From Escherichia coli (GTDB lineage: Bacteria > Pseudomonadota > Gammaproteobacteria > Enterobacterales > Enterobacteriaceae): a stretch of DNA of 64,000 nt. Made by a program: the position numbers. The DNA lies in the NCBI RefSeq assembly GCF_041886205.1, contig NZ_CP169029.1; one strand, given 5' to 3'. This document shows, one piece after another, positions 39,001 to 45,000 of the stretch (position 1 is its first letter; every line of letters begins with the position of its first letter).

Positions 39001-42000
39001 CTGACCTTAGTGTGATGACGCGTTCACAGCGACCACACTGATTTTCCCTTCTGAGACTGAACTGAAAACCGCTATTCACACCTGACCACGCTGCCCGTAC
39101 CGGGACGGCTGTTGCCTGCGTGTCGTCTGGCGGCTGAGGAATATGACGATGTACGCAAAATCCTTTCTCGCACTTGATGGCAACGGGCGTCTGACTGGTG
39201 CCCGTACCGCACAGACTGCACCTTACGATCGCTACACTTGCCACCTTTGCGGCAGTACACTCAGATACCATCCGCAATACGACACTGAACTTCCCTGGTT
39301 TGAACACACTGACGAAGGGCTGACTAAGCACGGTCATGAGTGCCCTTATGTCAGACCGGAGTGCAGAGAAATACAACTGATTAAGCGTCTGCAGAAATTC
39401 GTACCGGATGCCTTACCCGTGGTGCGTAAAGCCAGCTGGCACTGCACGAAACAAGGCATTGGATCTTGTAGGTAATTTAGGAGCGGACTCTAAGCCAGTT
39501 ATCGGACGTTTGGAAGTCAGCGCTGGTAATGGGAAAGTCATAGGGCGGCAATCCAGCGACGGAAAAGTTGGTTGGCGTGTTGATTATGATCCTGAAAAAG
39601 GCACACACATATATATATGGGATTACTCACAGGGTAAAGGTCCTGGAAAAGCGGTGAAGCAAGTCATACCTTTTGAAGGCAATGAAAAGTCTTTTGAAAC
39701 AAAATTGAAACAGCTAAACAGGTAGAGTAAATGACTTTATTTGATGAGTGTCGGGAAGCACTGAGTGCTGATTTTAATATAGTAGAGGGGCTGGCTCAGC
39801 AGGAGGCTATGGGCATTTTAAATAAGTATCCTCTCGCGAAAGGACGTGTTACTTGGTCAGAGATCAGGCATTCTGATTATGAGAGTTTTGATGAGTTATT
39901 GAGTGCAAACTCTGTAAAAAACGATGACATGTTTGTCTTTGCAGATGATGCAAGTATTCCAGTTTTTAGGTCAAATCTAAGATTAATCGCTGAAAATATC
40001 TATGACGTAACAGCTTTATCGCCCAAATTATTCATTTTTAATGATGAAGTGATAATACAACCTTTATTCCCAACTGATATGTTCCGTTTAGGAATCAAGA
40101 AATAGTGGGAAAGCTCGCAAATCCCGGCCATTATGCCGGGATTTTTTTGTGCACAGAAAACCCCCGGCTAGGCTGGGGGTTCCGGAAAGCTTTCAGCTTT
40201 GAGCCAGTTATTAAAACCCCTTTTGATTTGTTAAAACACCTTGCGGTCTGGCAACTGCAAGTGTCAAACATGAAATCAAAAGGGGGTCCCAATGGGGAAC
40301 GAAAAGAGTTTAGCGCACACCCGATGGAACTGTAAATATCACATAGTTTTTGCGCCAAAATACCGAAGACTGGTGTTCTATAGAGAGAAGCGTAGAGCAA
40401 CAGGCAGTATTTTGAGAAAGCTGTGTGAGTGGAAAAGCGTACGGATTCTTGAAGCTGAATGCTGTGCAGATCATGTCCATATGATTGTGGAGACCCGCCC
40501 AAAATGAGCGTATCCGGCTTTATGGGATATCTGAAAGGGAAAAGCAGTCCGATGCTTTACGAGCAGTCTGGGGATTTGAAATTCAAATACAGGAACAGGG
40601 AGTTCTGGTGCAGAGGGTACTACGTCGATACGGTGGGTAAGAACATGGCGAAGATACAGGATTACATAAAGCACCAGCTTGAAGAGGATAAAATGGGAGA
40701 GCAGTTATCGATTCCCTATCCGGGCAGCCCGTTTAATTCTGGAGGATATTTATTATCAGAAACAGGTCATATTCATATAATAAATAATGTATATAATTTT
40801 ATTGTTAAGTATGTAAAGGATAATACAGCATGGTAGTTTTGCGACATAACACACAAAAACAACACTCATGAAACAAAATGCCTTTATATGTTTTTATTTT
40901 GATGCATAATTGTTAATGACTATGAATGAGGGATGCAACACTATCGCATCTTCGGTTATTCCCTTAAATACTTACCTGCCATATGTCCGTATGGCAGGCT
41001 TTTTTCATTAACAGGCTTGCTGTTACATATCACTGTATTTCTCTTTTCCTTCCCTGTACTGCTTTTAGACTGGCCCCCTGAATCTCCAGACAACCAGTAT
41101 CACTTATTTAAGTGATAGTCTTAATACTAGTTTTTAGACTAGTCATTGGAGAACAGATGATTGATGTCTTAGGGCCGGAGAAACGCAGACGGCGTACCAC
41201 ACAGGAAAAGATCGCAATTGTTCAGCAGAGCTTTGAACCGGGGATGACGGTCTCCCTCGTTGCCCGGCAACATGGTGTAGCAGCCAGCCAGTTATTTCTC
41301 TGGCGTAAGCAATACCAGGAAGGAAGTCTTCTGCTGTGGCCGCCGGAGAACAGGTTGTTCCTGCCTCTGAGCTTGCTGCCGCCATGAAGCAGATTAAAGA
41401 ACTCCAGCGCCTGCTCGGCAAGAAAACGATGGAAAATGAACTCCTCAAAGAAGCCGTTGAATATGGACGGGCAAAAAAGTGGATAGCGCACGCGCCCTTA
41501 TTGCCCGGGGATGGGGAGTAAGCTTAGTCAGCCGTTGTCTCCGGGTGTCGCGTGCGCAGTTGCACGTCATTCTCAGACGAACCGATGACTGGATGGATGG
41601 CCGCCGCAGTCGTCACACTGATGATACGGATGTGCTTCTCCGTATACACCATGTTATCGGGGAGCTGCCCACGTATGGTTATCGTCGGGTATGGGCGCTG
41701 CTTCGCAGACAGGCAGAACTTGATGGTATGCCTGCGATCAATGCCAAACGTGTTTACCGGATCATGCGCCAGAATGCGCTGTTGCTTGAGCGAAAACCTG
41801 CTGTACCGCCATCGAAACGGGCACATACAGGCAGAGTGGCCGTGAAAGAAAGCAATCAGCGATGGTGCTCTGACGGGTTCGAGTTCTGCTGTGATAACGG
41901 AGAGAGACTGCGTGTCACGTTCGCGCTGGACTGCTGTGATCGTGAGGCACTGCACTGGGCGGTGACTACCGGCGGCTTCAACAGTGAAACAGTACAGGAC

Positions 42001-45000
42001 GTCATGCTGGGAGCGGTGGAACGCCGCTTCGGCAACGAGCTTCCGGCGTCTCCAGTAGAGTGGCTGACGGATAATGGTTCATGCTACCGGGCTAATGAAA
42101 CACGGCAGTTTGCCCGGATGTTGGGGCTTGAACCGAAGAGCACGGCGGTGCGGAGTCCGGAGAGTAACGGCATAGCAGAGAGCTTCGTGAAAACGATAAA
42201 GCGTGACTACATCAGTGTCATGCCCAAACCAGACGGGTTAACGGCAGCAAAGAACCTTGCAGAGGCGTTCGAGCATTATAACGAATGGCATCCGCATAGT
42301 GCACTGGGTTATCGCTCGCCACGGGAATATCTACGGCAGCAAGCCAGTAATGGGTTAAGTGATAACAGGTGTCTGGAAATATAGGGGCAAATCCAGCTTT
42401 ATCGTCCGTGTGCTGGTGTTATATATGAGGGAAGCAGAGTTGTCGCCGGACCCAGTTCTGGTGTGCAGTGCTGCATTGTCGTAATGTCCGTGATTGATAA
42501 TCATGCTTCTTGTATAACGACAATGAGATGTCCGGGCTCAAATCATAATGTGGTCAGGGCGTCATCGCGAAAATTCGGTTATCATAAATACCTTTCGTTT
42601 TTTCCAGGGCTTTACAGGCAGACCAGTTGAAAAGCACCGTAATATCGAAAAGTAATAACTCTGGAGACATAAAAAAGCCGGCGAAAAACGCCGGCAATGA
42701 TCATAAACAAAAATAGGCTAATCCCTATGTGCCTTATCATTTTCCCACCATTTCATACAGAATTTCAAGCTGATATACAGAAAAAATAACATTGACTGGC
42801 GAAGCTGTGATAGAACTTAGAATGTATCAGAAAGAAATATTTTGTATGACAAAATGATGTGGCAGATATTAAGGTCGTACCAGCAGTAATTTCCTGTGCG
42901 GTCCGTACAGGAAGGAGTGTCATATATTCTTATTATGTGAATTAGCTCAATTATTAGAGAGATGTCTGTTATATATAATTTATCACAACACGGTGTATCC
43001 TGTATTGTATCAGGGCTAAGTGGCAGTTTGTACATAACCTGCAAAGGATTTGCTAAAGGCACCTCAAGGCGGACCATGGTTTGCCACACCAGTGGTCTAT
43101 CGGTAAAAATCCGACACCGTGTTGTTTTTTCTCTGTACTTTTATCTATAAATCACGAGTTGATGGTGTTTTTTTGCTTCATGAAGGAGGGCTGTGAGGTG
43201 TTTTAACTTTTCTTCGTGAAGTCAAATAGAGATATATAATTTATTCATGTGATAGAATTATGTTTACTGTTAACGGGTTATATTTTGATCCACTTGATCA
43301 AGAAAGGGTTATTGGATGGGGAGTGTATCGTAAATCCCCATGGGACCTTGTTGGTGTTTATCCGACAGAATATATAGCCAGGGAAAAAGCGGTATCATAT
43401 GGCTGCGATTATTTAGTATCACTGGGCCCTTATCGTATTGGCTCACATGATTTCAGACCATTCATGTCATATATATAAATCTGCGTCCTGATATTATCAA
43501 ATATTCCAAGTATAAATACACTCTGATTCAGTGATGACATTGTATATATTATGCATTGCCATGATATATGGATTACTCCTGACGGGTTATCTCCGGACAG
43601 CTGGTGTATCTGAATCTGGAGTGTAAAATACAGTAAATATGTGATTTAAACTCTGTAAAAAAATCCTGCCATACAGATGTATGGCAGGTAAGTGTCAGTT
43701 ACGCTGTAAATAAACATAATATCAGGTACAGCACACCTGATTTACGTCTGCGAAAAAAATTATGTATAGAAATGGAGGAATATAAAGGATTTGTTGTTGA
43801 TTTTATGTATTATGTCACAAAACTATGTATATTGTTGATAAATAATCAGGCTATGTTGAAGGTGCGTATTTTCATGAAAGGAGATCACTCAATACTCACC
43901 GATCTCCTTCACGGTAATACGCACTGACTCCGGTAATCCCCGTATTTCATCCTCGATGGCGTACTGTTCACTGATTCGCTTCAGGGCTTCTTCTGCCGTC
44001 TATACATCGTGGATTTTTCGCCGGGCATGGGCCCAGCACGCAACTTCTGTCAGTGCACCACCTTCACGTTCTGCACTGAACAACCTGTCGTAACCTGTGA
44101 ACGCATCCGCCTGCAGGATACCCCGGAAGGGGCGGAGGTGTTGCTCCGGGTATTTCCCCTGACGGTTCGGCGAGTACGCGAACCAGACCGCTGGAGGAGA
44201 TGACGAACCCACATTGCGATCATCCCGGACATACGTCCAGATACGCCCTGTTTTCGCCTTTTTCTGACCCGGTGCCAGTACCTTTACCGGTGTGTCATCA
44301 GTGTGAACCTTGCGGGTGTTCATTACATAACGGTACAGGGCATCATTCACCGGTGTCATTAACTGGCAGCACGCGTCAACCCAGTTGGAGAGTAAGGCCC
44401 GGCTCAGTTCGACACCCTGGCGGGCAAAGATTTCACTCTGACGATACAGTGGCAGATGTTCGCAGTATTTTCCCGTTAACACGCGGGCAAGTAATCCGGA
44501 GCCCGCGATACCACGCTCTATCGGGCGGGACGGCGCCGGTGCTTCAACAATACAGTCACATTTTGTACAGGCTTTTTTTACCCGTTCTGTGCGGATCACT
44601 TTCAGGGCACTGCTCACCAGTTCCAGCTGTTCAGCGCTGACTTCCCCCAGATAATCCAGCTCACCGCCACACTCCGGGCAACAGCTTTCTTCTGGCTCCA
44701 GGCGGTGTATTTCACGGGGAAGGTGTGCCGGTAACGGACGACGATGGCGCGACTGTCGCAACTGGCGGGGAACCTGAGGATCGTCTTCCCGCCCACTGTA
44801 ACGATCGCTGTCCTGTTCACGTTGTTTCAGCAGGGCCTCAGCCAGTTCAACTTCACGACGCAGTTTTTCAGAACGGGTACCGAACAGCATCCGGCGCAGT
44901 TTTTCTATCTGAGCCCGCAGATGTTCTATTTCCCGTTCATCTTCTTCGATCTTTTCTTCGGCACGTGTCAGTGCAGAGCGCAGGAAGGCTTCCGTCTCTT

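Follow-up and report, generated by a model that had tools for sequence, protein, structure and literature searches.

Frame-disrupting lesions and stepwise decay of adjacent IS200 and IS2 copies in an Escherichia coli genomic island

The adjacent IS200 and IS2 copies described here are very probably both defective, non-autonomous relics of ordinary neutral IS decay in an E. coli genomic island. In the window, by which we mean the whole 64,000-nucleotide stretch that was analysed (contig NZ_CP169029.1, assembly GCF_041886205.1), each transposase gene lacks a single base, and the IS200 copy carries in addition a second, larger lesion that was missed by an earlier note on this DNA, namely an internal deletion of about 109 bp. 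The note had described the two as decaying IS copies, and this description is supported by the lesions, by their effects on the reading frames and by their recurrence in other genomes. We infer that transposition activity has been lost in both elements. Chance is not an issue in their identification, because the IS2 (98.1%) and the IS200 (97.7%) match known elements at high identity, and a search for a second IS2 or IS200 copy within the window found none. The IS200 remnant and the DNA next to it consist of the following parts.

40141-40755, plus strand: IS200C-derived remnant, its left boundary uncertain within 40141-40148
40159-40282, plus strand: IS200 left-end RNA module, with a terminator hairpin (40159-40181) and the SD-sequestering stem-loop of the tnpA 5'UTR
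40292-40507, plus strand: tnpA 5' fragment of 71 codons, with the HUH motif as HVH (40472-40480) and a TGA stop (40505-40507)
40493-40494, plus strand: 1-nt deletion in tnpA, the T of GAGATCCCGCCC, codon 68, relative to IS200C and CFS3292
40495-40735, plus strand: tnpA 3' fragment in the original frame, with the catalytic Tyr125 codon TAC (40663-40665)
40736-40740, plus strand: junction of the internal deletion of about 109 bp, where ATTCT replaces IS200C sequence
40741-40755, plus strand: retained IS200 right terminus GGAGGATATTTATTA, equal to the last 15 nt common to two independent IS200C copies
40756-41060, no strand: AT-rich, unannotated spacer between IS200 and IS2, with a terminator-like hairpin (40975-40998)

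The reference for this element was the intact copy named IS200C by PGAP in P31_YH1_02.21 (IS200/IS605 family, IS200 group; between yiaY and aldB; WP_000526135.1), to which the remnant is 97.65% identical over 596 bp (40141-40735). Like IS200C, the relic has a complete left end, a Y1 HuH gene with HUH and Tyr125 codons, and the terminal 15 nt; unlike IS200C, it lacks one T in codon 68 and about 109 bp, and it differs by seven amino acid substitutions. The left-end module matches the Rfam family RF01405 (STnc490) over its full length (1-124; 141.7 bits, gathering score 56, E=9.4e-30), and its layout agrees with nt 12-34 and 69-138 of IS200 (PMC4513863); beyond STnc490, an Rfam scan of 38000-45000 gave merely a sub-threshold rseX-like match.

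TnpA of IS200 belongs to the Y1 HuH enzymes, and what it recognises at the ends of the element is subterminal secondary structure (PMC6006769, PMC5027513); its catalytic residue is Y125 (PMC4513863). The Y1_Tnp domain is present in the window but split over two frames, the 5' fragment covering Pfam profile positions 2-62 (1.8e-16) and the 3' fragment positions 60-121 (7.3e-13), with the HVH and Tyr125 codons each in a different frame; the 3' frame stays open through non-IS DNA up to 40836. The earlier note had placed a split of tnpA at about 40490 and ascribed it to a slip in a C-run. A frame change near 40493 is indeed there, but alignment with IS200C shows that the base lost is the T of GAGA[T]CCCGCCC, which both the IS200C and the CFS3292 copies keep and which, flanked by A and C, lies outside the C-run and outside any homopolymer.

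The larger lesion removes the last 14 nt of tnpA (the region of the last five codons, and the stop codon) and nearly the whole right end, with it the 5' arm of the right-end hairpin CCTCCGGCTATGCCGGAGG, so that only the last 15 nt remain and the right-end subterminal hairpin that belongs to an IS200 element is gone. Homology to IS200C ends at 40735 and resumes solely as the terminal 15-mer at 40741-40755, a sequence that occurs only once in the window. A simple truncation was considered for the 3' break and rejected, because the IS200C terminal 15-mer was found 5 nt beyond it, which identifies an internal deletion. Since this deletion took both the tnpA end and the right-end hairpin, the copy would be immobile even without the frameshift. 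Relative to IS200C, the window tnpA also has 7 nonsynonymous changes, including L87P and F93S, and 4 synonymous ones, a pattern consistent with neutral drift and no selection.

Whether such a relic could still serve some function deserves consideration. One reading is that it has been kept as a source of left-end regulatory RNA, that is, an sRNA derived from the tnpA 5'UTR and the antisense art200. In favour of this are the complete left end, as judged from its Rfam score, and the precedent of Salmonella, in which IS200 5'UTR-derived RNAs regulate virulence genes (PMC5435999, PMC12594629). However, no differential constraint was seen when the left end (2 differences from IS200C in 144 nt) was compared with tnpA (11 in 444 nt), the two rates being indistinguishable with so few differences, and nine genomes have lost, through a 40-bp deletion, the very start of the element together with one arm of the left-end terminator hairpin. 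We therefore regard this reading as unlikely. Another reading supposes that the tnpA frameshift is compensated during translation. After the loss of the T, tnpA reads CGC CCA AAA TGA, so that the T-deleted sequence itself carries a canonical X_XXY_YYZ heptamer, C_CCA_AAA (40498-40504), with the new stop immediately behind it; by slipping -1 on this heptamer, ribosomes would regain the original frame and yield a TnpA with only two changed residues at that point. Non-programmed -1 slippage is known to suppress single-base deletions in E. coli at the percent level, especially at heptamers (PMC10861913). Against this, no stimulatory structure was found downstream of C_CCA_AAA_UGA, the next 80 nt folding worse than shuffled sequence (z=+1.31); the slipped product would still be without its native C-terminus, with the right-end hairpin gone there would be no element of its own for the protein to mobilise, and the 7 nonsynonymous changes are consistent with absent selection. 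Compensation of this kind is thus extremely doubtful. The mixed-frame peptide from such a slip would contain …VETRPKMSVSGF…. It is accordingly very improbable that the relic is not wholly inert, either because a -1 slip restores tnpA, or because the left end yields putative 5'UTR and art200 RNAs, or both; if it were so, the relic would be a small island-borne source of RNA or protein and not pure junk.

The second element, IS2, inserted 305 bp downstream of the first, and its parts are as follows.

41061-41065, no strand: left copy of the IS2 target-site duplication, GCTTT
41066-42395, plus strand: IS2 copy of 1330 bp with imperfect terminal inverted repeats, 98.1% identical to K-12 IS2A over its full length
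41075-41106 and 42356-42387: the inverted-repeat arms
41157-41387, plus strand: insC (orfA) as now read, with 58 native codons including the HTH, 18 out-of-frame codons and TGA at 41385-41387
41330-41331, plus strand: 1-nt deletion in insC, the A of ACT, codon 59, IS2A position 266
41336-41521, plus strand: stranded 3' part of insC, a coiled-coil/LZ-like dimerisation region in a frame that differs from that of the start codon
41473-41479, plus strand: programmed -1 frameshift site A AAA AAG, intact, the A6G window as in PMC3219604
41479-42384, plus strand: insD (orfB), an open frame of 301 codons with a DDE integrase core
42396-42400, no strand: right copy of the target-site duplication, GCTTT

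Alignment with the 1331-bp IS2A of K-12 MG1655 (NC_000913.3 381260-382590; IS3 family, IS2 group) gave 24 substitutions and one gap. Like IS2A, the window IS2 has homology of about 1.33 kb from end to end, imperfect terminal repeats, a 5-bp duplication, overlapping orfA and orfB reading frames, the A6G -1 slip site and, in the orfB product, a DDE (rve) domain; unlike IS2A, it measures 1330 bp, its insC ends early and its InsD carries six changes. It is thus a member of the group by descent but defective, because the intact orfA of an autonomous element, from which both OrfA and OrfAB can be translated, is interrupted by the stop at 41385-41387. The substitutions relative to IS2A are common to the intact copy of EC-JS426 at the same site, and InsD differs from the InsD of that orthologous copy by one residue. 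Its domains were recognised (Pfam rve 1.7e-18, rve_3 9.1e-18, HTH_21 3.6e-11). The earlier note had held insD and the inverted repeats to be intact and the GCTTT duplication preserved, and this agrees with the open insD frame (301 aa), the two arms and the GCTTT on both sides.

The gap in the alignment is the missing A of insC, the window reading CTT^CTGCTG where IS2A reads CTTACTGCTG; the note had expected cttactgctg here and proposed a 1-nt deletion, as the alignment shows. The lost A is flanked by T and C and lies outside any homopolymer, and its restoration in silico returns an InsC identical to that of K-12 in 121 of 121 residues. In OrfA of IS2, the HTH occupies the first ~60 residues and the dimerisation residues are 58-105, with a coiled coil at 73-100, and InsCD (OrfAB), made at the A6G window, is the functional transposase (PMC3219604). 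The truncated insC product of 76 aa keeps the HTH (Pfam HTH_Tnp_1, 2.8e-16, residues 8-57) and has lost the dimerisation region. Because the premature stop lies 86 nt upstream of the A6G slip site, ribosomes starting at the insC ATG cannot reach that site, and production of both InsC and the InsCD transposase is therefore precluded, in line with the suggestion of the note that a mutation in insC would abolish both products. The 70-mers of the left and right ends have exact matches in 522 and 1309 records, respectively, from chromosomes and plasmids; with its ends intact, mobilisation of the window IS2 in trans by another IS2 is conceivable, and this would be at best the way in which it may still move. 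No further IS2 copy was found in the JML285 genome.

The single-base lesions recur in other genomes. The exact 70-mer with the IS200 T deletion was found in 22 complete genomes, which come from a variety of hosts and countries; eight of these records were same-locus loci or matches, and the rest matched a locus-specific query (40140-40760) at 99.7% or above. Of 20,395 records, just two, JML285 and ZYB39, contained the exact 70-mer with the IS2 A deletion, so that apart from the window only 2 of 5,426 complete genomes carry it, and the 71-nt form with the A occurred in more than 3,200 records, the best matches differing by that base alone. JML285, ZYB39 and the window differ structurally, with an IS100 after the IS2 in ZYB39 and flanks that are 98-99% identical, and must therefore be separate assemblies and strains. 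By BLAST, the window is a mosaic: ZYB39 is its closest match downstream, JML285 is the closest around the IS pair, and it is identical to neither. In both JML285 and ZYB39, PGAP independently annotates the identical sequences, the IS200 as "IS200/IS605 family transposase, frameshifted; incomplete" and the IS2 as "IS3-like element IS2 family transposase, frameshifted".

The earlier note had raised the possibility of homopolymer sequencing errors, and one might indeed suppose that both indels are errors of sequencing or assembly and that the genes are really intact, given that single-base indels are the commonest assembly error and that those of the window were judged through other assemblies, identity to which is the only support for its own two indels; however, neither deleted base sits in a homopolymer, the IS200 deletion is identical in 22 independently sequenced complete genomes and the IS2 deletion in two other, structurally different ones, and the IS200 copy is broken anyway by the internal deletion, all of which makes this supposition barely credible.

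Other genomes also preserve the intermediate states. CFS3292 has the junction of the internal deletion and retains the T; CE0011b has the T deletion together with an exact empty IS2 site bearing a single GCTTT; and in EC-JS426 the site is occupied by an IS2 of 1331 bp that is annotated as an intact element with programmed frameshifting and that, apart from the A, is distinguished from the window IS2 by no more than a single EC-JS426-private SNP. Judged by match length, an IS2 of 1331 bp lies there in four further genomes as well. The order of events is thus IS200 insertion, internal deletion, T loss, IS2 insertion and A loss, the last being recent and private to a lineage. The history very probably began with the insertion of an IS200C-type element just past the terminator of an orphan CDI immunity gene. 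This element then lost about 109 bp internally, and with them the last part of tnpA as well as the hairpin by which the transposase has to recognise the right end, and the later loss of the T in codon 68 put the HUH motif and the catalytic Tyr125 into separate frames. Later still, the IS2 inserted downstream and created the 5-bp duplication, and in the lineage of the window it lost the A in codon 59, causing translation to stop before the slip site. As it stands, this IS2 can supply neither the complete InsC regulator nor the InsCD fusion transposase, the insD gene, slip site and ends being untouched.

The spacer between the elements is rare. It was found in only 30 of 5,426 genomes, with no gene annotated there; 27 of them have the full spacer (40736-41065) and three have only a partial, diverged piece. 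No ancestral spacer without the damaged IS200 was found among the 5,426 genomes searched, as all 27 genomes with the full spacer also match the damaged-IS200 query. ARAGORN found no tRNA in the window, which indicates that the attachment site of the island lies outside it.

The case is one of ordinary mobile-element decay of an already known kind, and RefSeq/PGAP flags both elements as pseudogenes; nothing of substance separates them from the other PGAP-flagged IS pseudogenes of enterobacterial genomic islands. What is added here is only fine mapping, namely which base was lost, where IS200 underwent its internal deletion and in what order the events took place, and its significance beyond housekeeping is small. 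Because both frameshifts prove to be genuine, inherited changes and assembly error is dismissed as their source, the annotation of the two genes as pseudogenes should be kept. The nested alleles at this site, comprising the empty site, the intact IS2, the frameshifted IS2 and an IS2::IS30 fusion, provide a clean example of IS death in place, and both single-base deletions, that of the A in IS2 and that of the T in IS200, can be used as lineage markers for the island.

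Two insertion sequences lie within 40141-42400, both on the + strand with 305 bp of AT-rich, unannotated DNA between them, and both are decayed: the frames of tnpA, the IS200 transposase gene, and of insC, orfA of IS2, are broken, and the IS200 copy has lost nearly all of its right end. The earlier note, which described decaying copies with inactivating single-base indels, is thus confirmed with two corrections, concerning the base lost in IS200 and an internal deletion of 109 bp that it had missed. Such decay is ordinary and already known, and PGAP tags both genes 'frameshifted' in identical RefSeq sequences (strains JML285 and ZYB39). 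A search across the window found no further copies of IS2 or IS200. The elements and their main features are:

40141-40735, + strand: homologous part of an IS200C-type copy (left element), 97.65% identity to intact IS200C
41066-42395, + strand: IS2 (right element), 1330 bp, end-to-end identity of 98.1% with K-12 IS2A
41061-41065 and 42396-42400: target duplication GCTTT, flanking both ends of IS2
41473-41479: A AAA AAG slip site, 86 nt past the premature insC stop
41479-42384: insD (orfB of IS2), open, 301 codons, rve domains

Against IS2A, the 1331-bp reference of K-12 MG1655, the 1330-bp window IS2 shows 24 substitutions and a single gap, the A of insC codon 59 (ACT) between 41330 and 41331, so the one-base deletion given in the earlier note is real. 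With the A restored, InsC equals K-12 InsC at 121/121 residues; as it stands, insC runs from ATG 41157 through 58 native and 18 out-of-frame residues to a TGA at 41385-41387. The native part contains the helix-turn-helix (Pfam HTH_Tnp_1, 2.8e-16), which lies within the first ~60 residues of IS2 OrfA; dimerisation, binding and transposition require residues 58-105, within which the coiled coil spans 73-100 (PMC3219604). The functional transposase is the OrfAB fusion (InsCD) produced at the A6G window (Lewis et al. 2011, PMC3219604), and because the stop precedes the slip site, neither full-length InsC nor InsCD can come from this copy, as had been argued. The IS2 ends are in good order (exact 70-mer matches in 522 records for the left and 1,309 for the right), and insD and the GCTTT duplication are intact, as previously reported.

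The left end of the IS200 copy is complete, and the Rfam model STnc490 matches 40159-40282 (141.7 bits), corresponding to two structures known from IS200, a terminator hairpin and an SD-sequestering stem-loop (PMC4513863). This match is on the + strand, the same as tnpA; STnc490/art200 is described as antisense to the tnpA 5'UTR (PMC4513863), and the Rfam model appears to capture the structure of the sense strand. The tnpA gene (start 40292) bears two lesions. The first is a one-base deletion between 40493 and 40494, which had been read as a frame slip in a C-run; the frame break holds, but the base absent relative to IS200C, a named E. coli isoform, is the T of GAGATCCCGCCC, outside that run. 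Because of this deletion, the HUH motif (HVH) at 40472-40480 no longer shares a frame with the codon of catalytic Tyr125 at 40663-40665. Secondly, homology to IS200C ends at 40735 and resumes 5 nt on with GGAGGATATTTATTA (40741-40755), the right-terminal 15-mer common to two independent IS200C copies; therefore, ~109 bp were lost internally, which took away the final 14 nt of tnpA and almost the entire right end, one arm of the hairpin CCTCCGGCTATGCCGGAGG included. Since IS200/IS605 transposases use subterminal secondary structures at both element ends as substrates (PMC6006769, PMC5027513), excision of this copy would be impossible even with transposase provided. The seven nonsynonymous and four synonymous changes in tnpA relative to IS200C fit the pattern expected of unconstrained drift.

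Could the IS200 relic have been kept because its left end still yields regulatory RNAs of the IS200 type? Such RNAs are on record (PMC5435999, PMC12594629) and the left end is intact, but we found no excess conservation of it, and a 40-bp deletion has taken its first bases in nine genomes, which makes this improbable. Still more doubtful, to the point of being barely credible, is translational compensation of the tnpA frameshift. The T deletion created a canonical X_XXY_YYZ heptamer, C_CCA_AAA, directly ahead of the new TGA (40498-40507), where a -1 slip would restore the frame, and non-programmed suppression of this kind is known in E. coli (PMC10861913); however, no stimulatory structure was found downstream of the heptamer, a restored TnpA would be without its native C-terminus all the same, and no usable right end is left on the element. 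Sequencing error, a worry for supposed homopolymer indels, is effectively excluded, since both missing bases lie outside homopolymers and both indels recur exactly in complete genomes, the IS200-deletion 70-mer in 22 (from cattle, pigs, birds, humans and water on several continents) and the IS2-deletion 70-mer, among 20,395 records, in JML285 and ZYB39 only. Eight of the 22 were examined in detail and carry the deletion at this same locus, and the others match a locus-specific query at ≥99.7%. The 71-nt form keeping the A occurs in >3,200 records, the best of which differ by that base only. JML285, ZYB39 and the window differ structurally (an IS100 just downstream in ZYB39, different island contexts, flanks 98-99% identical) and are therefore independent data.

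Related genomes form a nested series of alleles. CFS3292 has the IS200 deletion junction but retains the T; CE0011b combines the T deletion with a precise empty IS2 site, where the window flanks are joined across a single GCTTT; a 1331-bp IS2 at the same site is carried by EC-JS426 and, judging from match length, by four more genomes, and the EC-JS426 copy, which PGAP calls intact with programmed frameshift, differs from the window IS2 only by the A and one SNP private to EC-JS426. In nine CP55-type genomes, the same IS2, with insC intact, is fused at position 700 to an IS30 3' half. Across the T-deletion genomes, IS2 sequence is present at the site in 16/22 and absent in 6/22, the empty site being confirmed base by base in one of these six. 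Because the alleles nest in this way, the events ran from IS200 insertion through internal deletion, T loss and IS2 insertion to A loss, the last being recent and confined to the lineage that comprises the window, JML285 and ZYB39.

The first 11.5 kb of the window, which is E. coli DNA, hold the glc operon; next comes a Wadjet system, and after it a CP4-like island that carries Ag43, orphan CDI modules and F17 fimbriae along with numerous IS elements. The Wadjet-type (JetABCD-like) anti-plasmid system, directly after glcA at 11920-18605, has four genes, all open (498, 254, 1095 and 394 aa), the third of which is annotated in pieces in strain CX12. No complete genome in the collection is identical to the whole window. 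The segment 40100-42500 is 100% identical in JML285 and ZYB39, and this identical module has different neighbourhoods, with the glc operon and Wadjet ~20-30 kb upstream in the window and nanC/nanM at the corresponding distance in JML285. The flanks match JML285 (loci L003/L004) and ZYB39 (L011) at 95-99.98% identity, in blocks. Together these differences point to mosaicism or transfer of the island and away from simple clonal descent.

Several further observations concern the surroundings. The in-frame IS2::IS30 chimera of the nine genomes (CP55_Sichuan locus L002, 5904-7199; break equivalent to window 41765) joins an IS2 part, made up of an unbroken insC, the A6G site and the initial ~95 codons of insD, to IS30 from …IQHLRRSHS… through the end of the DDE domain. 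PGAP treats it as intact under the name 'IS30 family transposase, programmed frameshift' (WP_371830378.1), a label probably given in error to a deletion product. The 40-bp deletion in these genomes lies between two CCCGGC repeats (window 40123-40168; L002 ~4990-5006) and leaves the terminator of the upstream gene without its 3' half and IS200 without its first bases, one arm of the left-end terminator hairpin among them. The 305-bp spacer (40756-41065) was struck independently three times in different lineages, by IS2 at GCTTT (41061-41065) in the window, by a second IS2 in opposite orientation at GTTTT (~40889-40893) in CFS3292 (L008 4753-6083) and by IS3 at ~41028-41030 in EC-JS426 (L010 3932-5187), and looks like a local IS landing pad. 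An inverted repeat of 36 nt (40970-41005 and 43658-43693), whose arms are 89% complementary, encloses IS2 together with ~1.3 kb of AT-rich DNA in which no gene is annotated. Each arm consists of a GC-rich hairpin with a T-run behind it (CCTGCCATA…TATGGCAGG + T6), and the two may be either terminators converging on a decayed cassette or the termini of a small element. Finally, a weak rseX-like Rfam hit on the - strand (42670-42789; 36.8 bits against a gathering score of 50, E=0.063), in otherwise unannotated DNA, terminates in a strong terminator (GCCGGCGTTTTTCGCCGGC + T-run, 42677-42695) and is probably just that terminator.
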